From positions 30,001-62,000 of the forward strand of contig JALDRA010000001.1 in assembly GCA_031316235.1 (NCBI GenBank): a stretch of 32,000 bases of DNA. Direction: 5' to 3'. A program made the position numbers and the translations under genes. The DNA comes from Candidatus Scalindua sp. (lineage in GTDB: Bacteria; Planctomycetota; Brocadiia; Brocadiales; Scalinduaceae). The notes under the pieces are model-generated. The model did no database searches. It was not told where the DNA came from and was given only the letters and a program-made list of their open reading frames with translations. Below, piece by piece: positions 3,128 through 31,627 of this stretch; the first letter of the stretch is position 1, and each line of letters begins with the position of its first letter.

Positions 3128-3577
3128 GCTAGCCTGGATTTCCACGTAAGCTAATTCACCTAAGAATGTAACCATATTTCTCGAATTTGAGCTATCTGAA
3201 ATTGTTCAAAACCTTTGTTTTACTTGATGACTGTCTTTGTTGTTGTCAAGCTTACAACCTTTCTTACTTATCAAAATAGTTAATGTAAATAGTTGTTGTG
3301 TAGTTGGTAGAATGGTGGTAGAATTGTAGCGAATTTATACTTTACCTTACAGATTCTATATATTTAGCTATTCTATCGACATGGCAATAAAAACAAGCAA
3401 GTCACAATTAGAAGATAAGTTAATCAATTGCCTAAGTGACGAGTCAAGATTCTTTTTAGAGCAACAGCTTCCAAAACAACGACAGTACGAAGCTCTAAGA
3501 GCATAGTATAATGACATTGAGATAGAATTTCGTTCTGCTTTCTTAGTTTAATTAATTACGTGAAAATCCAGGCTAGC
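3128..3577. repeat. 28-29 bp imperfect inverted repeat pair enclosing about 390 bp (IS ends or a MITE-like unit)
   Basis: 3128-3156 is gctagcctggatttccacgtaagctaatt. The reverse complement of 3550-3577 is gctagcctggattttcacgtaattaatt, matching at about 26/28. The first arm overlaps the tail of the IS4-like fragment. Confidence 0.6.
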
Positions 3578-5816: not shown

Positions 5817-6240
5817 TCATTGACACATTCCGAATTTTATGATAGTGAGTTTTGATTTACCATTAAAACCTTCCACAATTCCAATAGAAAGAAGCTCTTT
5901 CACACGAAACCAATTTAAAATCTCCTCTTTATGTTTCCTTAAATTCTTTAAGATCTTTTTAACAGGTTTAATCTTTGATCGAGCAGTTAAAAATAGGGTG
6001 TTTCCTTCTACTAAATCTAGTTTTATGTATAATTTAAAGCATTGCCTTAACACTTCTTTTAAAGCCTTTTTGCTATTACGTCTGAAATTTGCTATGGTTT
6101 TATGATCAGGCTTTAGCCCTCCCATTAAACCATATAAATGAACAACTATAATGTTCTCTCAAGCTTTCTCGATCTTCTCCAAGCGTAAGAATTTCCTTAT
6201 ATCAATAGCTTCACCCTCGCTTAAAGATCATATTGAAAAT
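5817..6240 (-). pseudogene. fused IS debris: IS1182/IS5-type N-terminal fragment joined to an ISL3-type C-terminal fragment
   Basis: GGLKPDHKTIANFRRNSKKALKEVLRQCF is the IS1182/InsH N-terminal motif, and its upstream part (..RKLERTL*..) carries stops. The 3' half, ..ILNWFRVKELLSIGIVEGFNGKSKLTI, is the ISL3 C-terminal motif (..NG.VEG.N.K.K). Confidence 0.6.
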
Positions 6241-17634: not shown

Positions 17635-18033
17635 AATAGAACACAGAACAACACGGATTACGCATATTTTAAGGGTTTTTGTGTCTGATCATTGGTAAAT
17701 ATTTTTCTCTTAAATTCGGCTCTCTTCTCAAATTTTAGCAGAAGTCCTACTTGGATTTTGGCTGCTTTCAAATAATTATTCAATTGAAATTCATGAACTT
17801 CGCAAATAGTCCCAGCCACTTTTAATGGTAACACTACAACCAATTTTACTTAATTCCATTACCATCGCATTTTCATTAGTTTTTTCTAAAACCCCAATAC
17901 CAAGTTTGTTGTTTACTTCATAAAATGATTTTATTATTCTTCCTGTAATATCCTTGTCTAGAATTTAATTTTTATATCATAAATTTTTTTATCTGTGAAA
18001 TATCCGTATCCTCAGAGTTATCCGTGGTCTATT
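17635..18033 (-). mobile_element. decayed class-1 GxxExxY cassette with both bounding repeats
   Basis: The left arm at 17635-17660 is aatagaacacagaacaacacggatta. The right arm at 17988-18033 is tttatctgtgaaatatccgtatcctcagagttatccgtggtctatt. The interior is collinear with 19585-20097 apart from an internal deletion. Confidence 0.65.
17658..17964 (-). pseudogene. GxxExxY protein pseudogene (class 1)
   Basis: It aligns at nucleotide level to 19621-20079 but lacks about 30 central codons. The start codon is changed: intact cttgtgtaacat versus ccttgtctagaat, so ATG becomes ATT. Confidence 0.75.
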
Positions 18034-18145
18034 GTACTCATCTTATAATGGTTTTCGGATAAAATCCGAGAAAAAACGGAGCGAGTATAACTGCAACCAA
18101 GCTTTGTTTTTTAGAAAAAGCTAAAACCAAAGCGGTTTTAGTATA
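18033..18145 (+). repeat. MITE family 1, full length (copy A)
   Basis: tgtactcatcttataatggttttcggataaaatccgagaaaaaacggagcgagtataactgcaaccaagctttgttttttagaaaaagctaaaaccaaagcggttttagtata. It abuts the cassette arm at 18033 and ends 10 bp from the FemAB-like stop codon. Confidence 0.85.
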
Positions 18146-18155
18146 TCCTTGTATA

Positions 18156-19247
18156 TCACAAACTTACATATTTTCTGATTGCAGGACCTATACGGTTTGT
18201 TACACAGAGTGGTAATTTCTGCCATATTTGTTCTATTTTTTCCCTATTTGATGAAGTTGTTGCATTAAAGTTAAGTTTCTTGCCGTTCATAATTATATAA
18301 TTCCAAAATAGAGGAACAGGCATTGAACTCCATTGCAGTTTAAATTTATAGGTACCTTCATCAGGTGTAGATCGACCAAAATCAAATTGCACATACCCAT
18401 TATCAGCAGAGAATTTTAAAAAATTCCAGTAAAGGAGCATATTGGGTGAAAGGCGGTTGTACTCACGTAAAGTAGATGCCCATGAGACCCAAACACTCTT
18501 ACTAGTGCTTAAAATAATTCCACCACCAACCGGTTTATTACTATAATAAACTAATCCTAAACGGGCGTTCTCACCATAATGTCGTAAGATATTTCTAAAC
18601 CATTCTTTTGAGTGAACGGGTGAACCAAGCTCCCTCATGTTTCTGCAAAAAACCAGATAAAATTCAGCAAAATGTTTAATATCACCCCAAACAAAATCCA
18701 ATCCATTTTTCTCAGCCTTACGAATTTGACTGCGTAGTTTAGATTTGAAACTAACCATCAGCTTATTAGACGACGATGGTATTTCAAGTAACATGCTGAC
18801 TTTATGAGATTGAGTATTTACTTGTAAATCCTGTTCCTGAGAAAATGTGGTTAAGTTATGGCTGCGTAATTCTATTCGTTTTGCCTTTAGTTTCCTGGCC
18901 ATTGATGTCGCTTCCTTTATGAGTTTGTCTCGTGCTTCATTACAACTGCTCAATATGCCACCCAAATCACAATATGGTAAAGAAACCAACTGACCAGACA
19001 AGAGTGGTGGTTTCATAAATATTAAAGGTAATACCCCAAGTAACTTCCCGCTTTCTCCTGCCATCAGGTAGTATCCCTTGTGTTTGTAAGCATCTTCAAC
19101 AGCCATTTTCCATGCAAAAAGATGGTATGCTGAACCATTCGGATGAGACAATATATACTCATCCCACGCTTCCCTGTCTTCAATGCTAGCTAATCTTATA
19201 TTCATGCTTCTTGGTTCAACGGTTTTTTCATAGAACACAGACGACAC
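18156..19247 (-). CDS. FemAB-family protein of the PEP-CTERM/EPS-locus type
   Basis: It has the GNAT-like FemAB architecture with ..FDFGRSTPDEGTYKFKLQWSSMPVPLFWNY.. near the C-terminus. The track start at 19247 is GTG and lies inside a cassette repeat. ATG at 19205 (MNIRLASIEDREAWDEY..) is the more likely start. Confidence 0.75.
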   Translation of the reverse strand: MSSVFYEKTVEPRSMNIRLASIEDREAWDEYILSHPNGSAYHLFAWKMAVEDAYKHKGYYLMAGESGKLLGVLPLIFMKPPLLSGQLVSLPYCDLGGILSSCNEARDKLIKEATSMARKLKAKRIELRSHNLTTFSQEQDLQVNTQSHKVSMLLEIPSSSNKLMVSFKSKLRSQIRKAEKNGLDFVWGDIKHFAEFYLVFCRNMRELGSPVHSKEWFRNILRHYGENARLGLVYYSNKPVGGGIILSTSKSVWVSWASTLREYNRLSPNMLLYWNFLKFSADNGYVQFDFGRSTPDEGTYKFKLQWSSMPVPLFWNYIIMNGKKLNFNATTSSNREKIEQIWQKLPLCVTNRIGPAIRKYVSL

Positions 19248-19581
19248 GGATAACGTAGATTATCACGGATTATTTTCCGATTATTGTTAAAAACTTCTGT
19301 AACATCCTTGTGAAGCATTAAATTCTAACATCCTATCTTTATTTATCAGTGAAACATCCGTGTTATTACTGTTGTCCGTGTTCATTTGATAGAACGCAGG
19401 GGCCACGGGTTGACACAAAATTTCACGTGTTTTATTTCTGGTCATTGATAAAGATTTTTCTGTATTGTCCTTGCCTAACATTGGATTGTTTCAACCTATT
19501 TTTGTTTATCTGTGAGACACCCGCGTTATCGGTGCTATCCGTGTTCTATTGATTGAACGCAGATAACGCGGGTGGCATAGG
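19231..19581 (-). mobile_element. two gutted class-1 GxxExxY cassettes in tandem, separated by palindromic repeat junctions
   Basis: Remnant r1 keeps ATG (19316-19318) plus about 12 codons (MLHKDVTEVFNN). Remnant r2 keeps ATG (19479-19481) plus about 11 codons (MLGKDNTEKSL) fused to the last few codons and 3' UTR (19417-19446). The repeat junctions are at 19338-19416 and 19501-19581. Confidence 0.6.
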
Positions 19582-19610
19582 TTTTCACAGGTTTTGTTTT
19601 TGATCATTGG

Positions 19611-19723
19611 TATACTCATCTCATAATGGTTTTCGGATAAAATCCGAGAAAAAATGGAGCGAGTATAACTGCAACCAAGATTTAGTTTCCGGTAAAACCG
19701 AAAACCAAATCGGTTTTAGTATA
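19611..19723 (+). repeat. MITE family 1, full length (copy B), with TA target-site duplication
   Basis: The filled site is cattgg-TA-tactcatc...ggttttagta-TA-aatattttt. The paralogous empty site at 17691-17705 is cattgg-TA-aatattttt. Confidence 0.85.
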
Positions 19724-20079
19724 AATATTTTTCTCCTAAATTCGGCTTTTTTACCAAAATTTAGTAGAATGCCTACTTCTATTTGGGTTGCTTTCAAATA
19801 GTTGATCAATTGAAATTCATGATGTTCACAAATAGTCTCAGCCACTTTTAATTCTACAATAACCAAATCATCTACTATTAGGTCAGCATAATAGTCTCCA
19901 ACTTCCTCCTTGTCATAATAAACTTTAATATTTTTCTGCTTAGAAACAGTACAACCAATTTTACCTAGTTCGATTGCCATCGCATTTTCATAAACTTTTT
20001 CTAAGAACCCAAAACCTAGTTTGTTATTTACTTCATAAAAAGCTTTTATTATTTTCCCAGTAGTATTCTTGTGTAACAT
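19621..20079 (-). CDS. GxxExxY protein (PD-(D/E)XK fold), class 1, C-terminus replaced by MITE read-through
   Basis: It has GFLEKVY (GxxExxY) and D..VELK motifs. Homology to the paralogs ends at ..AEFRRKIF. The last 44 codons are translated from MITE copy B, and the ancestral stop lies at 19585-19587. Confidence 0.85.
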   Translation of the reverse strand: MLHKNTTGKIIKAFYEVNNKLGFGFLEKVYENAMAIELGKIGCTVSKQKNIKVYYDKEEVGDYYADLIVDDLVIVELKVAETICEHHEFQLINYLKATQIEVGILLNFGKKAEFRRKIFILKPIWFSVLPETKSWLQLYSLHFFSDFIRKPL

Positions 20080-20224
20080 TAAATTCTTATATCATACTTT
20101 GTTTATCTCTGAAATTTCCGTGTCATCAGTATTATCCGTGTTCTATTATCCAATCAACTATTTGAACCCATTTATTTCGGAAGGAAATCATCTAATATCG
20201 GAATGATGCACTGCACTCCATTTG

Positions 20225-21177: not shown

Positions 21178-22140
21178 CTAGGCCAAGTTAGATCCTTTGT
21201 CGCTGCACTCATCTGAAAGATATTCTTCAATAGTGTATTCTTTCAGTCCTCTGGAATGAGTAAATATTATTACCTCCCCTATGAGGCCAATCGATAAAGT
21301 CTGTACACCTAAAACCATTAATAAAACTCCAAGCAGCAAAAGTGGTCTGTCTGATATACCTCCAAAACCTAGCAATTTATACATTACAAGATAACCGTTT
21401 ATTAGGCTCCCTATTCCAAACAATGTTGTTCCAATTAATCCAAAGAAGCGAAGAGGTTTCATGGTAAACTTTGTAATAAAAAATATAGTAAGTATATCAA
21501 GCAAACGGCGCAAATACACACCTGTCCTCACTAATCTTATAGCGGTATCTTCCTTTCTCTGCCTTGCTTTTATCTCCTTTATCTTAAAACCATATTTATC
21601 CGCCAGTATTGGAATAAACCGATGCAAGTCTCCGTATAAGCTGATTTCTTCAAAAACCTTTCTCTTCATCCCCTTAAGTCCGCAGCTGATATCATGAAAA
21701 TGAGTTGAAGTTATTTTCCATATGAACCAGTGAAACATGAAAGATTGAATTCTATTAATTCTTGCATCAATTCTTGGGTAACGCCTTGTTAATATCAGAT
21801 CCCAACCATTATTCAATTCTTTCCAAATTGTCTTTACGCTTTCGGGCTCTACCTGAAAATAAGATGCCAGAGTAAAAAGATACTTACCCTGAGCAGTTTC
21901 TAATCCAATAGATAATGAAACTGCTTCACCAAAGCTTTTTGCCAGCTTTATGACCTTTATTGAAGAATTCTCGCTCTTCAGCTTCTTTAGTTGCTCGATA
22001 ACCTGATGATATTCTCCATTTACTACAAATATAAATTCATAGGTTTTGCCAAGTTTATCAAACTCGGAGGAGAACTCAGAATATAATTTACGCAGATCGT
22101 CGTATCGTTCTACTACCGGAACAATGATTGAAATATCCAT
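21178..22140 (-). CDS. GT2 polyprenyl-phosphate sugar transferase (GtrB/ArnC/DPM1-like) with C-terminal TM helices
   Basis: 320 aa with an N-terminal GT-A domain (ISIIVPVVERYDD..), HRFIP, and two hydrophobic helices at the C-terminus (..FFGLIGTTLFGIGSL.. and ..LLLLGVLLMVLGVQTLSIGLIGEVI). Confidence 0.75.
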   Translation of the reverse strand: MDISIIVPVVERYDDLRKLYSEFSSEFDKLGKTYEFIFVVNGEYHQVIEQLKKLKSENSSIKVIKLAKSFGEAVSLSIGLETAQGKYLFTLASYFQVEPESVKTIWKELNNGWDLILTRRYPRIDARINRIQSFMFHWFIWKITSTHFHDISCGLKGMKRKVFEEISLYGDLHRFIPILADKYGFKIKEIKARQRKEDTAIRLVRTGVYLRRLLDILTIFFITKFTMKPLRFFGLIGTTLFGIGSLINGYLVMYKLLGFGGISDRPLLLLGVLLMVLGVQTLSIGLIGEVIIFTHSRGLKEYTIEEYLSDECSDKGSNLA

Positions 22141-22144
22141 TTTT

Positions 22145-22619
22145 TTAGCCCACTAAATTCACGAAAAAACACGAAAATACTTTCCTGCTTATAAGACCTC
22201 ATAAGATAAAACGTTCGTATTCAAGTTTTGGATGATGTCCAAAATTCACAAGAATACCCAATCTGAATTTAGTAGAATTTAAATAGTTCAAAATTTGTGA
22301 TCTATGCTCATTCGCAATTTTTGATAATGCTTTGATTTCTACAATGATTTTGTTATAACAAAAAAAATCAGGTTTATATACTTGTCTCAATATTTTATCT
22401 CGATATTTAAGTTGCAATTCTTTTTGAGCTTGAAATGGAATATTCTGTAAACTAAATTCAATTTCTAAACACTCCTGATACACCAACTCTAGAAAGCCAC
22501 ATCCCATTTCTTTATATACGTTATAACATGCACCAATAATCGAATAACTTTCATCTGCATAGATAATTTCAGATTTCATTTATTTTCTTTCGAGTTATTT
22601 CGTGCATTTCGTGGGTTAA
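22145..22619 (-). mobile_element. class-3 GxxExxY cassette bounded by 33-bp terminal inverted repeats
   Basis: 22145-22177 is ttagcccactaaattcacgaaaaaacacgaaaa. The reverse complement of 22587-22619 is ttaacccacgaaatgcacgaaataactcgaaag. They match at 27/33 positions, and each arm has three (C)ACGAAA units 9-11 bp apart. Confidence 0.75.
22199..22579 (-). CDS. GxxExxY protein (PD-(D/E)XK fold), class 3
   Basis: 126 aa with GFLELVY, PDFFCY..IVEIK and ..LVNFG motifs. ATG start. Confidence 0.9.
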   Translation of the reverse strand: MKSEIIYADESYSIIGACYNVYKEMGCGFLELVYQECLEIEFSLQNIPFQAQKELQLKYRDKILRQVYKPDFFCYNKIIVEIKALSKIANEHRSQILNYLNSTKFRLGILVNFGHHPKLEYERFIL

Positions 22620-22685
22620 AATATTTTCTAATTTTACTTCTACAGTCTTTTCGATTTATCAGTGCAGTCTCTAATCTGTATTTTA

Positions 22686-23636
22686 TTATAATATTTCAAT
22701 TGATGTTATTCCTCTTCCGTATTTCTTCTTAGTGTCACCCGTTTTTTGTATCATTTCACTCAGAAATCCAAGCATCAACATATGCGCAAATAAGAAAAAG
22801 AGTAAAATTGTAATTGAAGGAATAATTAGTGAGAAAGAATCTAAAACAGCTATATTCAGATACAAACTTATTGAAAAAAACATAAGGACTACTCCCATAG
22901 CCAGAAAAGGGAGGGCCAGTATTCCAAACCAAAGACCATGAGCGCCAGAGAATCCCAGTAACATCTTTATCGTAAATATATCAAGAAAGACCTTCCATAT
23001 CCTTGATAATCCGTATTTGCTCGTTCCAAATTTTCTGGCATGATGGTTAACGACAATTTCTGTATACCTTGCACCCATAATGGATGTCATTGCCGGGATG
23101 AAGCGATGCATTTCGGAATATAGTTTTGTCTCTTTTATCGTAGCACTTCTGTACGCCTTCAAAGAGCATCCGTTATCATGAATCTTTACTCCGGTAATTT
23201 TTCCTATCAACCAATTGGCAATTTTTGAAGGAACTTTGCGGGAGACTAATTTGTCTTTCCGGTTCTTTCTCCATCCACATACTATATCGTAACCTTCTTC
23301 AATCTTTTCAAGGAATCGGGGAATATCTTCAGGGTCGTTCTGCAGATCTCCATCCATACTAATAACGATCTTGCCCTTTGCGTGTTCGAAACCCGCCTGC
23401 ATGGCAGGAGTCTGTCCGTAATTTTTCCGGAATTTTATTACCTTGAGACGAAAATCACTTTGGCGAATAGCTTTTGCCCGTAAGAAGGTGGCATCACTGC
23501 TTCCATCATCTACAATGATAATTTCGTAATTCGTGTGTAATCCCTTCATCACTTGTGTGACAGAATCATACAAAGAACGAATACTTTCCTCTTCATTGTA
23601 AAGGGGAATTACGATTGAAACATCAATATCAGACAT
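22686..23636 (-). CDS. GT2 polyprenyl-phosphate sugar transferase (GtrB/ArnC-like) with C-terminal TM helices
   Basis: 316 aa: VSIVIPLYNEEESI..VDDGSSD..ISMDGDLQNDPEDIP..CGWRKNRKD..SLKAYR..EMHRFIP..SKYGLSRI, then two or more TM helices. This is the classic bactoprenol/undecaprenyl-phosphate glycosyltransferase pattern. Confidence 0.85.
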   Translation of the reverse strand: MSDIDVSIVIPLYNEEESIRSLYDSVTQVMKGLHTNYEIIIVDDGSSDATFLRAKAIRQSDFRLKVIKFRKNYGQTPAMQAGFEHAKGKIVISMDGDLQNDPEDIPRFLEKIEEGYDIVCGWRKNRKDKLVSRKVPSKIANWLIGKITGVKIHDNGCSLKAYRSATIKETKLYSEMHRFIPAMTSIMGARYTEIVVNHHARKFGTSKYGLSRIWKVFLDIFTIKMLLGFSGAHGLWFGILALPFLAMGVVLMFFSISLYLNIAVLDSFSLIIPSITILLFFLFAHMLMLGFLSEMIQKTGDTKKKYGRGITSIEIL

Positions 23637-23893
23637 AAGGTTGTCAATGCTTTAAACATTCCGTGTTACGCGTTGCGTGTTACGGGTCTGTCTCGTCGTC
23701 AACTGTAAGTAGCAAAATTAATAACTGGCCAGTTAACCGTTGGTCAACTGAACCGTCAAACTGGAACCGTACCAAACAATTACTCCATCGCTTAATATGT
23801 ACATAGCTCCGCTCTCTGGGTTACATCGGTTAATGCAACTTTTTAAATTTTAAGAGCCTTATGTAAACCACTAATCTGAATACAACAGTCAGG

Positions 23894-24033
23894 TATACTC
23901 ATCTTATAATGGTTTTCGGATAAAATCCGAGAAAAGACGGAGCGAGTAAAGTCCTCGGCGCCTTTTGTCCGGGGATACCATTAACCAGACTTTGGTTTTT
24001 AGAAAAATCTAAAACCAAATCGGTTTTAGTATA
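23894..24033 (+). repeat. MITE family 1, long variant (copy C)
   Basis: It has the same termini as the other copies. The internal taactgc is replaced by about 34 bp (aagtcctcggcgccttttgtccggggataccatt). Confidence 0.8.
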
Positions 24034-24144
24034 TATACCTGAGGTATAAGAGAATTAATGGAACAAATTTCATTATTATAGCAAATCCTTCGACTAAACA
24101 TTAATTGTGTATATTCTCATGCCATGAGTCATAAAGCACTACGA

Positions 24145-25080: not shown

Positions 25081-25131
25081 TATTGCTTATCTTATAATGA
25101 TTTTCGGATAAAATCCGAAAAAATTAGTATA
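25081..25131 (+). repeat. MITE family 1, short form (copy D)
   Basis: tattgcttatcttataatgattttcggataaaatccgaaaaaattagtata. It directly abuts the class-2 cassette arm at 25132. Confidence 0.75.
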
Positions 25132-25685
25132 TCACGCTAAGACGCTAAGATCGCAAAGTAAAAAAACTTTTAAAATCTTTTATATACATCTGTTTTGCAA
25201 TAAAACCTTTTTCTTCGTAGCAGGCTAACTGTAATTTATCAAGTGATTTCACGGAACATGCGTAATGAGGTTATTCTTCCAATCTATTTACTATGCGTGT
25301 GATACCATCCTTCATCAATGCCTCACCAAAGTTGAGCAAAAACCCCAACTTCATCCCAGTCAGCCTCAGATAGGTAAGCAATTGTTTTTTGTGGACTTTT
25401 GTAACAGCTTCAACGGATTTCAACTCTAAAATCACTTTGTTTTCAACAATAATATCAGCTTTAAACGCTTCCTCAAACTTTATACCGTTATATTCAATTG
25501 GTATTGTTACCTGCCTTTGAACTTTCAGTTTACGTCTACCAAGTTCACGCACAAGAATAACTTCATAGACTGTTTCAAGCAACCCTGGACCTAGTTCTTT
25601 ATGTAAAACAATAGACTCATCAACCACAACCTTGCCTATTTCATTTTCTGTCATTCTTCTTTGCGATCCCTGCGGCTTTGCGAGA
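25132..25685 (-). mobile_element. class-2 GxxExxY cassette bounded by 27-bp inverted repeats
   Basis: The reverse complement of 25132-25158 is ctttgcgatcttagcgtcttagcgtga. 25659-25685 is ctttgcgatccctgcggctttgcgaga. They match at 21/27. Confidence 0.7.
25271..25654 (-). CDS. GxxExxY protein (PD-(D/E)XK fold), class 2
   Basis: 127 aa with GLLETVY, ADIIVENKVILELK and ..LLNFG motifs. ATG start. Confidence 0.9.
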   Translation of the reverse strand: MTENEIGKVVVDESIVLHKELGPGLLETVYEVILVRELGRRKLKVQRQVTIPIEYNGIKFEEAFKADIIVENKVILELKSVEAVTKVHKKQLLTYLRLTGMKLGFLLNFGEALMKDGITRIVNRLEE

Positions 25686-25700
25686 TTCTATTTTTTGATA

Positions 25701-25782
25701 TATACTCACCAGATAATGGTTTTCGAACACATTACGGAAAAAAAACTGAGCGAGTATACCAGCAACCAGGCTTTCGTTATTA
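25701..25782 (+). repeat. MITE family 1, degenerate and 3'-truncated (copy F)
   Basis: tatactcaccagataatggttttcgaacacattacggaaaaaaaactgagcgagtataccagcaaccaggctttcg.. Similarity fades before the stop codon of the next gene at 25814. Confidence 0.6.
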
Positions 25783-25813
25783 CTATTTATGCCGAATAGA
25801 TATGCTATTGTTA

Positions 25814-27271
25814 TTAGACCATTTGAATATATTTCTTCTTACTCTTTGCAATCACTACATCCAACCCGGTTGAATTTAACTCTGTCTTTAATACTTTTTT
25901 AGCCTGGAAATCTCCATGAACAAGGAAGGTTTTTCCGGGTTTTTGCCTGAATCTTTTTACCCAGCGTATCAGGTCATTCTGCCCTGCATGAGCCGAATAC
26001 CCGGATATTTCATGAACAGCAGCCTTTACGCTTATCCGCTTACCATCAATCATTACATAACCCTGGCCTTTTTTGTCATGACTGCTATAATTGAGTATTT
26101 CTCTGCCCAATGTCCCGGAAGACTGGTATCCAATAAATATAATATCGCTTTTCCGGTCCGGCAAAAATTTTTTAAGATAATTCATAACCCTTCCTCCCGT
26201 ACACATGCCGCTGCCTGCTATGACAATTGCCGGACCACCTTCTTTTTTTAACCGTCTTATGACCTTCATATGATCTTTATGGTTTATAATACTCGTAATT
26301 CCCGGAAAGAGAAAGGGATCATCTCCCCTTTTAAGCCGCTTCTTTGACTCCTTATCCCAATAAGATTTAAGGCCAGAATACAAGTTTACAAACTTATTTG
26401 CCAGGGGTGAATCAACTATAACAGGAAGCATCGGAAGTTTGCCGGATTCGACAATTCCGTTAAGTTCATAAAGCAGCTCCTGTGTCCTTCCAACGGCAAA
26501 GGCTGGAATGATAACTATTCCATTGTCTGAAAGAGACCTATTTAGTGTTTCCAGCAAGACATTACGTCGATCCTTCCGTCCCTTATGAATCCTGTTTCCA
26601 TAAGTTGACTCAAGCACAAGAATGTCTGCGCGATAAGGCGAACGGGGAGAACTCAAGATTGGAGCATATGGGGCTCCAAGGTCTCCAGAAAAAACAACTC
26701 TACCCCCTTTCATACCGTTTGTCCGGCGATGTCCTTTGCCTGATGTGACATCAACCTCAATAAAAGCACTGCCAAGAATATGCCCAGCGGGATGAAATTT
26801 AATACGGAATGTATCAGACACGGTTATCCACTGTTTATATCTACATGGTACTATACGTTTTCTTAGTATATTAATCACATTTTGGATAAGTCTATGGTTT
26901 CTGGTGAAACCTATCTTGAGAGCATCAATTATCTGTTCCGGAACCAGGAATGCAGTTGGTACTGAAGTATAGATTGGGCCCGTATAGCCAGCAGCAAGCA
27001 GGTATGGGAGACGGCCTATGTGGTCAATATGGGCGTGTGTAAGGACTAATCCCTTAACGTTTGAGATGCCAAAGTCTATTTTTAATTCACGGTGATCTCT
27101 TGCTTCCTTTCCCTGAAAGATACCGCAGTCAATCAGCATGCTTTCAACCTCATATGAAATTTGATGACACGATCCGGTAACGCCTTCCGTGGCACCATGA
27201 AATTGTAAGCTCATTGTCATGAGGAAATCAAAAGTCGAAGAATAGAAAAGACAGGAATCGTGAAGGATCAA
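25814..27271 (-). CDS. MBL-fold metallo-hydrolase of the beta-CASP (CPSF/RNase J-like) RNA-processing family
   Basis: It has the HAHIDHIGRLP (HxHxDH) motif, a beta-CASP middle region, and C-terminal ..ISGYSAHAGQNDL..VHGD.. motifs. The family normally starts M..F.GA...VTGS, so ATG at 27220 or 27214 (MTMSLQFHGATEGVTGSCH) is more likely than 27271. Confidence 0.85.
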   Translation of the reverse strand: MILHDSCLFYSSTFDFLMTMSLQFHGATEGVTGSCHQISYEVESMLIDCGIFQGKEARDHRELKIDFGISNVKGLVLTHAHIDHIGRLPYLLAAGYTGPIYTSVPTAFLVPEQIIDALKIGFTRNHRLIQNVINILRKRIVPCRYKQWITVSDTFRIKFHPAGHILGSAFIEVDVTSGKGHRRTNGMKGGRVVFSGDLGAPYAPILSSPRSPYRADILVLESTYGNRIHKGRKDRRNVLLETLNRSLSDNGIVIIPAFAVGRTQELLYELNGIVESGKLPMLPVIVDSPLANKFVNLYSGLKSYWDKESKKRLKRGDDPFLFPGITSIINHKDHMKVIRRLKKEGGPAIVIAGSGMCTGGRVMNYLKKFLPDRKSDIIFIGYQSSGTLGREILNYSSHDKKGQGYVMIDGKRISVKAAVHEISGYSAHAGQNDLIRWVKRFRQKPGKTFLVHGDFQAKKVLKTELNSTGLDVVIAKSKKKYIQMV

Positions 27272-27431: not shown

Positions 27432-27481
27432 TATACTCATCTCATAATGATTTTCGGATAAAATCCGAGAAAATTAGTATA
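27432..27481 (+). repeat. MITE family 1, short form (copy E)
   Basis: tatactcatctcataatgattttcggataaaatccgagaaaattagtata. It abuts the class-2 arm at 27482, as copy D does. Confidence 0.8.
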
Positions 27482-27785
27482 TCACGCTAAGACGCTAAGA
27501 ACGCGAAGCATAAAGATTTTTATATAGTGATTGAACGAAAACTACCCATCTACTGTGTTGCTGTAATAATTTCTTAATCCTCAAGTACATTAGTACGTTC
27601 CGGTTGCGAAATTACTACACGCCTTGTATCTGGGCCGTTTTCGTTCAACCACAGGGTTTCCGTTCAAGCACTATATACATCTTTTTTTTTGCATACCTTT
27701 CTGTTTTGCAATAGAATCATCAATTACAACCTTGCCTATTTTATTTTCTGTCATTCTTATTTGCGATCCCTGCGTCTTTGCGTGA
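27482..27785 (-). pseudogene. gutted class-2 GxxExxY cassette (both arms kept, gene reduced to about 14 codons)
   Basis: The arms are 27482-27508 (tcacgctaagacgctaagaacgcgaag) and 27759-27785 (atttgcgatccctgcgtctttgcgtga). The start codon at 27752-27754 is followed by MTENKIGKVVIDDS (intact copy: MTENEIGKVVVDES), then joined to the 3'-flank sequence at a shared caata. Confidence 0.7.
27527..27671 (+). repeat. MITE family 2 (copy 2) with TA-rich target duplication
   Basis: It starts gtgattgaacgaaaactaccca. The reverse complement of the 3' end is gtgcttgaacggaaaccctgtggttgaacgaaaacggccca, so the TIR is about 16/18 and is duplicated at the 3' end. It is flanked by tatata on both sides, whereas the uninterrupted paralogous site at 25181-25186 has a single tatata. 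Confidence 0.65.
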
Positions 27786-27800
27786 AACTATTTTTTGATG

Positions 27801-27913
27801 TATACTCATCTCATAATGATTTTTGGATAAGATCCGAGAAAAAACGGAGTGAGTGTAACTGCAACCAGGCTTTGGATTTTAGATAAATCTAAAACCAAAT
27901 CGATTTTAGTATA
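27801..27913 (+). repeat. MITE family 1, full length (copy G)
   Basis: tatactcatctcataatgatttttggataagatccgagaaaaaacggagtgagtgtaactgcaaccaggctttggattttagataaatctaaaaccaaatcgattttagtata. Confidence 0.85.
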
Positions 27914-27935: not shown

Positions 27936-28487
27936 TTAGAATATATTCTTTAATCTCTTGTTAAAGCCTTTAAGGCCCGGTGTTTCAATGATATCATTAT
28001 CTCTGTATATCTTAAAAAGTTTATAAGCAGTATTGTCCAATAGATATATCTCTATAGACTCATCCTCCGGAATTACGATCCAGTATTCCTTTACACCAAA
28101 TTGTGCATAAAGTTTCTTCTTTTGAACCATGTCTCTATAGGCACTGCTCTTGGAGATTATCTCTATTGTTATACAAGGGGCTCCCTGGATATTCTTTTCT
28201 CCTATGATATTCAGCCTCTCCTTTGAAATAAACATAATATCAGGTTGAACCACATTTCCCTCATCAAGGTATACATCGCACGGCGTAAAAAATATCTCCC
28301 CAAGGTTCTTTTCGTTTACAAACTTCTCTAACAAAAACTCCAGCTTTCTTAGAATCCTTTGATGTCCTGTAGTTGGAGATGGAGTCATAAGTAGTTCCCC
28401 CTCTATAAGTTCATACCTCTTATCATCAGACATCATAACATAATCTTCATACGTATATTTTTTCTTCTTTTCAATAACTTTTGTCAT
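27936..28487 (-). CDS. Uma2-family (DUF820) PD-(D/E)XK endonuclease
   Basis: 183 aa: ..YTYEDY..DDKRYELIEGEL.MTPSPTTGHQ.. then ..VVQPDIMFISKE.. and ..APCITIEIISKSS..D...K...YA..GV.EYWIV. This is the typical Uma2 pattern. Confidence 0.85.
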   Translation of the reverse strand: MTKVIEKKKKYTYEDYVMMSDDKRYELIEGELLMTPSPTTGHQRILRKLEFLLEKFVNEKNLGEIFFTPCDVYLDEGNVVQPDIMFISKERLNIIGEKNIQGAPCITIEIISKSSAYRDMVQKKKLYAQFGVKEYWIVIPEDESIEIYLLDNTAYKLFKIYRDNDIIETPGLKGFNKRLKNIF

Positions 28488-30869: not shown

Positions 30870-31011
30870 GGAAGAATTATCGTTGAAAACAACGAGGAAG
30901 TCAAGATCTTTTATTATATTTTACAAAAAATCGGGAATGCTCCCATAACACTCCTATCTGTCCAATCCAGAAAACAAATGTCCATTTGATTATATCGGAC
31001 TTACTCTTTTC

Positions 31012-31124
31012 TATACTCATCTCATAATGGTTTTCGGATAAAACCCGAGACAAAATTGAGCGAGTATAACTGCAACCAAGATTTTGTTTCCGGTAAAGCC
31101 GAAAACCAAATCGGTTTTAGTATA
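31012..31124 (+). repeat. MITE family 1, full length (copy H)
   Basis: tatactcatctcataatggttttcggataaaacccgagacaaaattgagcgagtataactgcaaccaagattttgtttccggtaaagccgaaaaccaaatcggttttagtata. Confidence 0.85.
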
Positions 31125-31537: not shown

Positions 31538-31627
31538 TTTCGTGTAATTCTGTGCTATTTCGTGGGCTATTAAAGAAAAATTCTTTGGAATCATGTTGCC
31601 TGCCCACTGATACCACGAAAGAACACT
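31538..31627. repeat. gene-less tip-to-tip doublet of the class-3 cassette repeats
   Basis: 31538-31568 is atttcgtgtaattctgtgctatttcgtgggc. After a 34-bp spacer, 31603-31627 is gcccactgataccacgaaagaacac. These are the same TTTCGTG/CACGAAA and GTGGGC/GCCCAC elements as at 22145-22619, but the GCCCAC tips face each other. Confidence 0.6.

Follow-up and report, generated by a model that had tools for sequence, protein, structure and literature searches.

Multiple phased sites mark the ends of several transposable elements, including the TnsB sites of Tn7, L1-L3 and R1-R3 of Mu, and the subterminal repeats of hAT and CACTA elements. Free-standing homing endonuclease genes are represented by seg and mob of phages, and I-Ssp6803I is a homing enzyme of the PD-(D/E)XK type; we know of no such gene with inverted site arrays at its flanks. 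Intervening sequences of rRNA that contain a small ORF are regarded as selfish in the available part of one source (PMC4990558). In REPIN/RAYT systems, as far as the accessible text of two sources describes them, a small nuclease-type gene is flanked by an inverted short repeat (PMC3337134, 10.1101/2022.05.22.493013). At 50% identity, 1.84 billion representatives yield 30,863 clusters of the GxxExxY protein family (PF13366/TIGR04256); the sole survey to include this family enters its function as 'Unknown' (PMC3424549).

We analysed a 32,000-nt stretch of Candidatus Scalindua sp. DNA (the window), in which a GxxExxY gene with a pair of inverted arms lies between two GT2 glycosyltransferase genes. 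We designated the subfamily of this focal gene c2, and a second and a third GxxExxY subfamily c3 and c1, respectively. The features of the focal locus are as follows.

21178-22140, minus strand: downstream host gene, GT2 glycosyltransferase, 320 aa (context, outside the cassette)
22143-22176, minus strand: 3' arm, TTTCGTGttttTTCGTGaatTTAGTGGGCTAAAA in gene sense, 2 nt from the ATG of the downstream GT2 gene
22199-22579, minus strand: GxxExxY protein gene, 126 aa (PF13366, TIGR04256)
22588-22621, minus strand: 5' arm, TTTTAACCCACGAAAtgCACGAAAtaaCTCGAAA in gene sense, with 8 nt between the arm end and the ATG
22622-22685, minus strand: 64-nt leader, reaching from the upstream GT2 stop codon to the 5' arm
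22686-23636, minus strand: upstream host gene, GT2 glycosyltransferase, 316 aa (context, outside the cassette)

A repeat finder paired the two arms over 34 nt with 85% complementarity. Local alignment of the 120-nt gene flanks gave a score of 24, far above that of 500 dinucleotide shuffles (9.6 ± 1.4, maximum 16; z = 9.9), and these shuffle tests ruled out chance or low complexity as the source of the arms. On the plus strand, the left arm contains CACTAAA at 22151 and CACGAAA at 22160 and 22170, spaced by 9 and 10 bp; the opposite arm contains CACGAAA, CACGAAA and CTCGAAA with the same spacing. The focal motif is thus three CAC(G/T)AAA heptamers per arm, 9-10 bp apart. Exact CACGAAA occurred 11 times in the window (3.6 ± 1.9 expected), with 4 of the 11 located in the focal arms. 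The initial annotation had described a 475-bp unit with three phased heptamers in each arm, whose left arm (22145-22177) agrees at 27 of 33 positions with 22587-22619 read as the reverse complement. The identity and the phasing were both reproduced, and the arms and gene are as claimed, but the insertion spans all 545 bp of the gap, including the 64-nt leader. This leader contains a degenerate heptamer pair (CACTGAT..ATCGAAA) and the direct repeat D4, and may be a decayed older arm. To call the focal arms transposon TIRs would be premature in the mechanistic sense. A terminator reading was ruled out, as no terminator-like site was found within 21900-22900. A known RNA family was also ruled out, since an Rfam search of the window at E ≤ 1 gave two spurious matches only, both away from the cassette; no tRNA or rRNA (the latter by Rfam) was detected in the window.

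The proposed position of the unit, in the 545-bp gap between the two GT2 genes, was confirmed. Orthologues of the downstream GT2 gene in L167, L169 and L170 shared 72-78% amino-acid identity with it, and comparison of the junction with these relatives located an empty site: in L169, a related Scalinduaceae contig, the orthologous GT2|GT2 junction reads TAAaaaATG and lacks the leader as well. Thus, the 545 bp in the Scalindua window is an insertion, which bears out the earlier suggestion of an insertion into an operon spacer. The focal cassette occupies, in sense orientation, a former 3-nt spacer between GT2 genes of an exopolysaccharide operon. In the related contig L167 this junction is occupied by another GxxExxY cassette, different from the focal one, and by a solo c2-type 3' arm; in L170 it is occupied by unrelated filler DNA.

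The assignment of the 126-aa product to a nuclease fold was upheld by profile matches to PF13366 (PDDEXK_3; E = 1.5e-40, 138.6 bits, cut-off 22) and TIGR04256 (E = 5.7e-41, 139.5 bits, cut-off 35). The protein contains the N-terminal GxxExxY motif and the nuclease residues D71, E81-x-K83 and Q95-xxx-Y99. G28, E31, Y34, D71, E81 and K83 were invariant across the protein alignments; Q95 and Y99 were invariant in the 7-sequence alignment, and in the 41-sequence alignment Y99 was invariant and Q95 at least 90% conserved. An AF2 model (pLDDT 93) was best matched in Foldseek by Cas4 SSO0001, lambda exonuclease and RecE (top PDB entries 4ic1, E = 4e-4, 3slp and 3h4r; TM-score ~0.57), while a PDB sequence search with the protein gave no match. 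Judged from these profile and model matches, the focal protein is a predicted RecB/Cas4-like PD-(D/E)XK nuclease of the GxxExxY family. It was the sole match in the focal cassette to Pfam/NCBIfam: no DDE or HUH transposase and no serine or tyrosine recombinase was found there. PADLOC defence models gave weak Cas4-like or PDC-M36A matches only (E ≥ 2e-4).

To compare the cassette with its relatives, we used 80 c2 loci from many phyla and 80 c3 loci. Homologues that are 75-79% identical occur in unrelated contexts, yet with the same arms, and c2 members in many other phyla are 56-71% identical. A CCCACGAAA-nn-CACGAAA-nnn-CACGAAA arm lies upstream of the homologues in L002-L010 and in most of L007-L086. 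At the 80 c2 loci, the density of triple-heptamer arrays was 3.0/kb and 2.45/kb at ≤ 250 nt from the gene and mostly 0 beyond 750 nt (at most 0.22/kb per 250-nt bin), a distance profile that ruled out a genome-wide REP-like repeat. A motif-agnostic search for flanking inverted repeats with z > 4 was positive at 86% and 73% of loci, compared with 4% and 0% of displaced controls. The c2 motif was present at 63 of the 80 c2 loci and the c3 motif at none of them; conversely, the c3 motif (CGCAAAG, period 8-9) was present at 67 of the 80 c3 loci and the c2 motif at none. The CAC/CGC variant showed no correlation with GC content. The occurrence of both types in a single window, each with its own protein subfamily, ruled out a host-factor or GC-driven motif. 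Within a subfamily, no signal of fine protein-motif co-evolution was found (within-class identity 0.64-0.66, between-class 0.63). In Bacteroidota and Spirochaetota, distant members are flanked by analogous arms that consist of other motifs.

Both neighbours were co-directional with the gene at 49 c2 loci and both opposite at 4; the corresponding numbers for the c3 set were 28 and 2. Coding sequence flanked 158 of the 160 loci, and none lay in a non-coding or rRNA context. No conserved partner gene was found, the 136 neighbouring genes representing 164 Pfam families; this, with the weak PADLOC matches, ruled out membership in a known anti-phage defence system. A phage or plasmid vehicle was ruled out too, as 50,697 phage records contained no member of the family and, among plasmids, members were found on 7 large plasmids or chromids only. 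These results show that GxxExxY members come as a fixed module of the gene and its cognate inverted arrays of phased heptamers, and that unrelated operons carry this module as a sense-oriented insertion between their genes.

We then considered whether the arms act as RNA. As in an rRNA intervening sequence, they could pair within the polycistronic transcript into a stem of ~30 bp, cleavage of which by RNase III would excise or insulate the nuclease mRNA and make the insertion tolerable to the operon, with the heptamer periodicity being incidental. Consistent with this, the arms are closed in the minimum-free-energy as well as the centroid fold of a 496-nt transcript, cassettes within operons are in sense orientation, and the last heptamer of the 5' arm adjoins the start codon, so that pairing could control translation. 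There is also a precedent in the intervening sequences, in which, by the available part of the source, a small ORF has complementary flanking ends (PMC4990558). However, the fold z-score of the whole transcript was only -1.3. Variable heptamer positions were alike at similar rates whether they would pair or not (79% versus 76%; 69% versus 67%), indicating no covariation between would-be pairing heptamers; the arms therefore behave as site arrays and not as a selected stem. The arm mismatches comprised 14 GU, 21 AC and 26 transversions, with no G-U excess, and the G/T variation at heptamer position 4 creates uncompensated G-A mismatches. The lack of covariation and of G-U bias ruled out a selected RNA or cruciform stem. 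In addition, the motif is conserved across phyla and specific to the subfamily, neither of which a mere stem needs, and at many loci arm numbers are unequal or the gene stands between complete hairpins instead of inside one, the latter arrangement accounting for ~12% of c2 loci. We consider an RNA-level element improbable. The arm spacers are variable, with only 65% matched, and the heptamers remain invariant at a synonymous divergence close to saturation (dS 0.7-1.6). This pattern fits sequence-specific sites, presumably bound by a protein. Of the earlier proposal that the phased repeats are protein-binding sites and not a terminator, the part concerning the terminator stood and the array-like conservation agreed with the rest; protein binding itself we infer.

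If the arms are ends, they could be recognised by a transposase encoded elsewhere, the GxxExxY gene being cargo of a non-autonomous passenger, for example an addiction or defence gene; a MITE, or a transposon in which each end has several transposase-binding sites, would be the model. Multi-site phased arms do resemble ends of the Tn7, Mu or hAT type. Transposase fragments are present in the window (ISL3, 5817-6125; rve, 2153-2632), and the L003 cassette has a Y1 transposase gene at a distance of 2.6 kb. Target-site duplication was examined in three ways. The 8-bp sequence TTATAAAA flanks the L167 insertion at either end and is present a single time in the empty L169 junction, a possible duplication; its TTATAA is palindromic and resembles the outer arm. 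Weak global tests of flanking direct repeats indicated a mild excess (7 loci versus 3.5 ± 1.7 expected; 4 versus 1.9 ± 1.4), and the mean length of shared k-mers at the flanks was 3.5 versus 2.4 ± 0.3. On the other hand, no transposase recurs as a conserved neighbour, and few arms lie at a distance from the gene. The match of arm type to nuclease subfamily is perfect across phyla, so each host would have to provide a fitting transposase in trans. We regard such a passenger as very improbable.

The window contains further cassettes and derivatives of them.

25131-25686, minus strand: c3 sibling cassette with gene 25271-25654 (127 aa)
27470-27795, minus strand: c3-type internal-deletion derivative (direct repeats D7 and D9; arm alignment score 19)
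19552-20146, minus strand: c1 sibling cassette with gene 19717-20079
19228-19527, minus strand: two tandem gene-less c1-type units, 19393-19527 and 19228-19389 (direct repeats D2 and D10)
17635-18033, minus strand: frameshifted c1-type pseudogene with arms (direct repeats D5 and D8)
31538-31626, minus strand: gene-less c2-type arm remnant, TTTCGTG..GTGGGC, an interval of 41 nt, and GCCCACGAAAtagCACAGAAttaCACGAAA

The c3 protein is 32% identical to the focal protein, and the arms of its cassette (25654-25686 and 25131-25163) consist of CGC(A/T)A(A/G)G heptamers with a period of 8-9. Its derivative retains both arms and approximately the first 20 codons, the remainder of the gene being replaced. 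The c1 cassette has weaker and longer arms with ACACGGAT-type units, and a 120-nt D1 repeat between the gene and the 3' arm; the gene-less c1-type units retain arms, the initial ~10 codons of the gene and the 3' flank. The pseudogene is 83-85% identical to the c1 cassette at the nucleotide level and gave HMM matches in two frames (17827-17967 and 17697-17912). This local duplicate was the closest pair in the window, where no multiple near-identical copies were found. The three intact genes are only ~33% identical to each other, and the GxxExxY paralogues within one genome are old. A further inverted repeat, at 3128-3577, contains no ORF.

A resident, non-mobile host nuclease could also be envisaged, with the arrays serving as a pair of operators, to both of which the protein would bind so as to loop the DNA and keep read-through out of its own gene, and the patchiness reflecting ordinary horizontal transfer and loss. 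The nuclease gene is under strong purifying selection (dN/dS 0.08-0.17), its 5' array immediately precedes the start codon, recent identical copies were not seen, and Scalindua species retain one cassette at a single site, Na/Ca-exchanger|LpxB, suggesting long vertical residence; all of these are compatible with a host gene. In contrast, presence, absence and a change of occupant at one orthologous junction, insertion into housekeeping operons that are unrelated to each other and lack a conserved partner, gene-less and tandem derivatives, and the spread of c2 members at 56-71% identity through many other phyla are typical of selfish DNA and argue against a resident host nuclease, to which we give little credence.

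We favour a compact selfish cassette whose arms are the putative cognate binding sites of its own nuclease, a reading that we judge to have an even chance of being correct. It would consist of a solitary GxxExxY gene bracketed by inverted three-heptamer arrays, with heptamers about one helical turn apart and of a sequence specific to the nuclease subfamily. The cassette has no terminator and is probably expressed via operon read-through. Most likely the arrays are bound as double-stranded DNA by the nuclease of the cassette and would form its cis-acting ends, at which the nuclease would act to move or copy the cassette, whether through excision and insertion or through break-induced copying; the heptamer sites may also permit autoregulation. 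The insertion, the linkage of gene and arms across phyla, the subfamily motifs, the lack of pairing covariation, the co-orientation, the purifying selection and the decay derivatives are all observed and support the selfish cassette. We infer that the cassette is mobile, and that the nuclease binds the heptamers and catalyses this mobility. As a counterpoint, near-identical copies that would point to recent transposition were not seen, and a lone hydrolytic PD-(D/E)XK nuclease is, to our knowledge, incapable of strand transfer by itself. The long residence of one cassette at Na/Ca-exchanger|LpxB, the c2 loci in which the gene stands between hairpins, the missing fine-scale co-evolution of motif and protein, and the closure of the arms in the RNA folds also weigh against the selfish cassette. 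That GxxExxY cassettes form a new class of autonomous bacterial mobile element of ~0.47 kb, the smallest known, driven by the nuclease through heptamer-array ends into operon spacers, seems to us possible and rather doubtful.

The gene-plus-arms design, found across many bacterial phyla, may represent a new kind of minimal selfish DNA element; a full-text literature search with the family names and arm sequences returned nothing relevant. The module supplies the GxxExxY family with concrete, testable biology, namely a defined DNA ligand on which binding and cleavage could be assayed, and a defined unit in which mobility could be. Mobilisation by the nuclease, if it occurs, would add a new enzymatic route by which DNA moves, in a module of motif and nuclease pairs that is unusually small and looks programmable. 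If the autonomous-element reading is true, more than 30,000 'function unknown' clusters would be an unrecognised transposon or homing superfamily. Even without mobilisation, polysaccharide, respiratory and other operons often harbour these cassettes as hidden passengers, and the cassettes are relevant to annotation, to the inference of operon structure and to recombination hot spots at such loci.

Compared with known systems, the cassette combines features of several. With classical insertion sequences it shares inverted ends (34 nt, 85%, z = 9.9), but it contains no known transposase. An integron cassette has a single 3' attC, whereas GxxExxY cassettes have triple-heptamer arrays on both sides of the gene; no integron integrase was found among the ORFs of the window or the neighbours of the homologous loci. 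The ends of Tn7, Mu, hAT and CACTA are likewise inverted, each with several copies of a short motif. Unlike these elements, the cassette lacks a DDE or other known transposase, its sole protein is a predicted hydrolytic nuclease of 126 aa, and recent copies were not seen. Homing endonuclease genes are also solitary nuclease genes between conserved host genes with presence/absence polymorphism, but the GxxExxY family is absent from the 50,697 phage records.

The focal protein has the fold and the D, ExK and QxxxY motifs of the Cas4/RecB/lambda-exonuclease domain, and Cas4 profiles match it weakly. It differs from them in being a bare core of only ~125 aa, encoded outside any CRISPR or helicase context. 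The rRNA intervening sequences (the Coxiella burnetii 23S sequence with S23p; those of Leptospira) resemble the cassette in length (~0.4-0.5 kb), in their single small ORF, and in having complementary ends inside a host transcription unit. They lie, however, in a helix of 23S or 16S rRNA and not between two GT2 genes, their ORF is of the S23p four-helix-bundle type and not a PD-(D/E)XK nuclease, and the arms of the cassette are conserved-motif arrays without pairing covariation.

REPIN/RAYT genes encode a Y1/HUH transposase instead of a PD-(D/E)XK nuclease, and their palindromic REP repeats are dispersed in hundreds of copies; the cassette arm is a direct array of three heptamers, and the arrays are confined to ~250 nt of the gene. 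Several divergent gene copies per genome also set GxxExxY apart from REPIN/RAYT. Within what the accessible text of the sources describes, the two nevertheless have in common a gene flanked by inverted cognate repeats, gene-less hairpin doublets, a repeat family of its own for each gene family, and a persistence that can be long and vertical (PMC3337134, 10.1101/2022.05.22.493013).

A repeat finder placed the arms of the focal cassette at 22143-22176 and 22588-22621 (34 nt, 85% complementary, 411 nt apart), and re-reading of the sequence bore out the features given for this unit in the initial annotation. Each arm contained three heptamers, CAC(G/T)AAA or CTCGAAA, with a spacing of 9 and 10 nt. 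Exact CACGAAA was three-fold over-represented in the window, and 4 of its 11 copies fell in these arms. Local alignment of the 120-nt upstream flank of the gene with the reverse complement of its downstream flank scored 24, compared with 9.6 ± 1.4 (maximum 16) for 500 dinucleotide-preserving shuffles (z = 9.9); the arm identity thus exceeded that of shuffled sequence. The view that the arms are not a terminator also held, as no terminator-like site was present in 21900-22900. No Rfam family matched the focal region. The window contained further genes and derivatives of the same family.

GxxExxY genes and derivatives in the window (c2, subfamily of the focal gene; c1 and c3, the other two subfamilies)
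22199-22579, minus strand: focal GxxExxY gene (c2), 126 aa, full-length PF13366 and TIGR04256 member
19717-20079: intact GxxExxY gene (c1), about 33% identical to the focal protein
25271-25654: intact GxxExxY gene (c3), about 33% identical to the focal protein
19228-19527: two gene-less c1-type units, first codons and 3' flank of the gene kept
27470-27795: c3-type internal-deletion derivative
17697-17967: frameshifted c1-type pseudogene
31538-31626: c2-type arm remnant

The focal protein matched PF13366 (PDDEXK_3) with E = 1.5e-40 and NCBIfam TIGR04256 ('GxxExxY protein') over its full length. In alignments of its homologues, G28, E31, Y34, D71, E81-x-K83 and Y99 were invariant, and Q95 was at least 90% conserved. 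The pattern D...ExK...QxxxY characterizes the RecB/Cas4/lambda-exonuclease branch of PD-(D/E)XK nucleases. The AlphaFold2 model was confident (pLDDT 93), and its top structural match in the PDB was Cas4 SSO0001 (4ic1; E = 4e-4, TM 0.57), followed by lambda exonuclease and RecE and then by tRNA-splicing endonucleases (E about 0.04). A PDB sequence search with the protein returned no sequence-level relative, and PADLOC and PHROG gave weak Cas4-like matches only. The family comprised 30,863 clusters at 50% identity (E ≤ 1e-3). It included natural tandem two-domain fusions of 250-295 aa (P0361, P0363-P0365 and about 35 others), which hint at a dimeric working unit and suggest that the single-domain protein may work as a dimer. 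The sole survey listing the family enters its function as 'Unknown' (PMC3424549); a full-text literature search with the family names and arm sequences found nothing relevant.

Homologues 75-79% identical to the focal protein were located between UDP-glucose dehydrogenase and GT4 genes (locus L002), between an unknown gene and a radical-SAM gene (L003), and between Na/Ca exchanger and LpxB genes (L004-L006); the last site was also occupied in L008-L010, from several Scalindua species. All of these homologues carried CCCACGAAA-nn-CACGAAA-nnn-CACGAAA just 5' of the ATG and an inverted copy past the stop codon. In Ca. Scalindua rubra (L006 3480-3600, the same as L008), the 3' arm was interrupted by some 110 nt of inserted sequence with a short inverted repeat at its ends (ccctgttag...ctaacaggg); this insertion may be a separate small MITE.

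Scanning one genome per species yielded 551 relatives, and the best 80 of these (56-79% identity) were taken as the c2 set. Their hosts were Planctomycetota, Ignavibacteriota, Calditrichota, Verrucomicrobiota, Acidobacteriota, Cloacimonadota, Nitrospinia and others. Within 250 nt upstream of these 80 genes, arrays of at least three phased heptamers had a density of 3.0/kb, and within 250 nt downstream it was 2.45/kb; in bins more than 750 nt away, it was mostly 0 and at most 0.22/kb. By a motif-agnostic test, 86% of c2 loci versus 4% of displaced controls had a significant inverted repeat (z > 4) in their flanks, and only 4 of the 75 c2 loci with adequate flanks were arm-less.

The arms were specific to the nuclease subfamily. 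The c1 gene of the window had ACACGGAT-type units, and the c3 gene had CGC(A/T)A(A/G)G heptamers with a period of 8-9. Eighty metagenomic loci of the c3 subfamily showed the same design, with CTCGCG/CTCACG-CAAAG n CGCAAAG n CGCCAAG arms. The c2 motif was found in 63/80 loci of the c2 set, where the c3 motif was found in none; conversely, 67/80 c3 loci had the c3 motif and none had the c2 motif. More distant members had analogous arms built from other motifs: CACAGAG three times within a 28-nt inverted repeat in Bernardetia, arms with ACACGGATTCG in Treponema, and phased ACAAATC in Prevotella.

To examine the focal site, we compared contigs with orthologues of the downstream GT2 gene (74-80% amino-acid identity). 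The four genomes were about equally distant (GT2 genes 76-83% identical in nucleotides). In the Scalinduaceae relative L169, the two GT2 genes were three bases apart (...TAAaaaATG...). This empty junction, together with the four-genome comparison, indicated that the entire 545-bp gap of the window is inserted DNA. Insertion into a GT2-GT2 operon spacer, as initially proposed, was therefore upheld; the proposed 475-bp extent was not, since the inserted DNA fills the full gap. At the same junction, L167 carried another, distinct GxxExxY gene (127 aa; 48% identity to the c3 copy of the window) with CGC(A/T)AAG-type arms; after it, a solo 3' arm of c2 type (TTTCGTGcTTTTCGTGGG) immediately preceded the downstream ATG. 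This arrangement points to serial occupation of a single site or to replacement there. L170 had 400 nt of unrelated filler. The junction has been filled, refilled or emptied on more than one occasion. The counterpart of window 22141-22685 was L167 2998-3500, and the GxxExxY subfamily at the junction differed among Scalinduaceae. At the ends, conservation stopped at (G)CCCAC. As a candidate target-site duplication, TTATAAAA was present on both sides of the L167 insertion and once in the empty L169 site. However, TTATAA is a palindrome similar to the outer arm, and flanking direct repeats showed only a mild excess in global tests.

If the arms were instead an RNase III-processed stem, they would act by pairing in the transcript. 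A predicted RNA fold still closed the focal arms, so that RNA-level processing is possible as a secondary effect. We compared arms at 30 loci that had a clear triple array on either side of the gene. Their heptamers were conserved (consensus CACGAAA; position 2 A/G, position 4 G/T/A), whereas the 2-3-nt spacers were variable and agreed between the two arms in only 65% of cases. Mismatches showed no G-U bias in the sense transcript (14 G-U, 21 A-C, 26 transversions). At the two variable heptamer positions, heptamers that would pair and non-corresponding heptamers of the same locus were alike in 79% versus 76% and 69% versus 67% of cases; would-be partners were thus no more alike, and nothing indicated that pairing between the arms has been selected. 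Synonymous positions in the gene were near saturation (dS 0.7-1.6; dN/dS 0.08-0.17), while the heptamer motif was held constant.

Arm-gene-arm was the commonest layout (35/75 c2 and 27/51 c3 loci). In about 12% of c2 loci the gene lay between two complete gene-less hairpins, others had extra arms, and tandem gene-less units stood beside genes, as in loci L003/L007. A further, improbable rival reading is that the cassette is a passenger of a transposase acting in trans. A Y1 (IS200/IS605-type) transposase gene was located at L003 705-1364, 2.6 kb upstream of the cassette amid tandem gene-less hairpins; no such gene recurred beside other cassettes. GxxExxY genes were solitary: their 136 neighbouring genes represented 164 Pfam families, including nuo subunits, GatB, ABC transporters and GT2, and none of these was a conserved partner. 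Both neighbours were co-oriented with the gene in 49 c2 loci versus opposite in 4 (28 versus 2 for c3), and packing was tight, the median distance between the upstream stop codon and the start of the GxxExxY gene being 71 nt in the c2 set. The family was absent from 50,697 phage records, occurred on only 7 large plasmids or chromids, and showed no apparent rRNA location among 160 loci.

A protein identical to the focal one is recorded from a MAG of Candidatus Scalindua sp., an anammox planctomycete, where its contig measures 4.15 Mb. The window (35% GC) is an exopolysaccharide locus (GT2, GT4, two asparagine synthases, Wzy, DUF3473 deacetylase, FemAB-like acyltransferase), with all larger genes on the minus strand except one small integrase fragment. 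Interspersed rve integrase and ISL3 transposase fragments and genes for a Uma2-family nuclease and a beta-CASP RNase-like protein (2153-2632, 5817-6125, 27936-28487, 25814-27271) are consistent with a recombination-rich region. The 406 nt between the arms of a 22-nt inverted repeat at 3128-3149/3556-3577 (95% complementary, GCTAGCCTGGATTTCCACGTAA) contain no ORF of more than 49 aa, and the unit may be another eroded small element. A 32-nt inverted repeat at 12650-12681/12749-12780 (88% complementary, 67 nt between arms), in the spacer of asparagine synthase and GT4 genes, is unrelated in sequence to the heptamer arms. Just upstream of the upstream GT2 start, at 23655-23690, GTAACAC occurs twice in gene sense at a distance of 12 nt, which may represent a lone arm from a further type of cassette; the L170 filler contains the similar GGGTTACGTGTT. 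A repeat of about 120 nt, 'D1', occurs on the transcribed strand between genes of the polysaccharide locus (18026-18145, 19604-19723, 23887-24036, 27794-27913, 31005-31124; partial copies 25086-25125, 25712-25790, 27436-27480, 1964-1994) and adjoins GxxExxY cassettes or is broken by them. RNAalifold predicted two hairpin domains, of which the first had a compensatory change, and Rfam had no match to the repeat. D1 may be a MITE or may act in cis as RNA, e.g. as an antitermination element of a long eps operon.

Together, the results support a discrete, heritable, horizontally spreading module, which combines a minimal nuclease gene with two arrays of cognate sites and lies in sense within operons of the host. 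Most economically, the arrays would be binding sites for the encoded nuclease, acting as cis-acting ends of a selfish cassette. The 5' array abuts the start codon, which would also allow autoregulation; a resident autoregulated nuclease is a less probable rival reading, against which the varied sites and the empty L169 junction speak. We infer the mobility of the selfish cassette from its distribution and from occupied and empty junctions, not from recent copies. For a hydrolytic nuclease alone, insertion might proceed by break-induced copying or by joining with host assistance.

It is quite possible, though less likely than not, that the GxxExxY cassette constitutes a new class of mobile element. 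It resembles rRNA intervening sequences in size, single ORF and complementary ends, but lies outside rRNA, and its ends lack covariation as a stem. Like REPIN/RAYT systems, it has a gene flanked by cognate inverted repeats and gene-less doublets, but a Y1 transposase is absent and the repeats are not scattered. In end design it is similar to transposons that have several binding sites at their ends, but it lacks a known transposase. Free-standing homing endonuclease genes are likewise solitary nucleases between conserved genes, but do not have the flanking site arrays. Because it fails a defining feature of each of these systems, we classed it as a selfish, inverted-repeat-bounded gene cassette.
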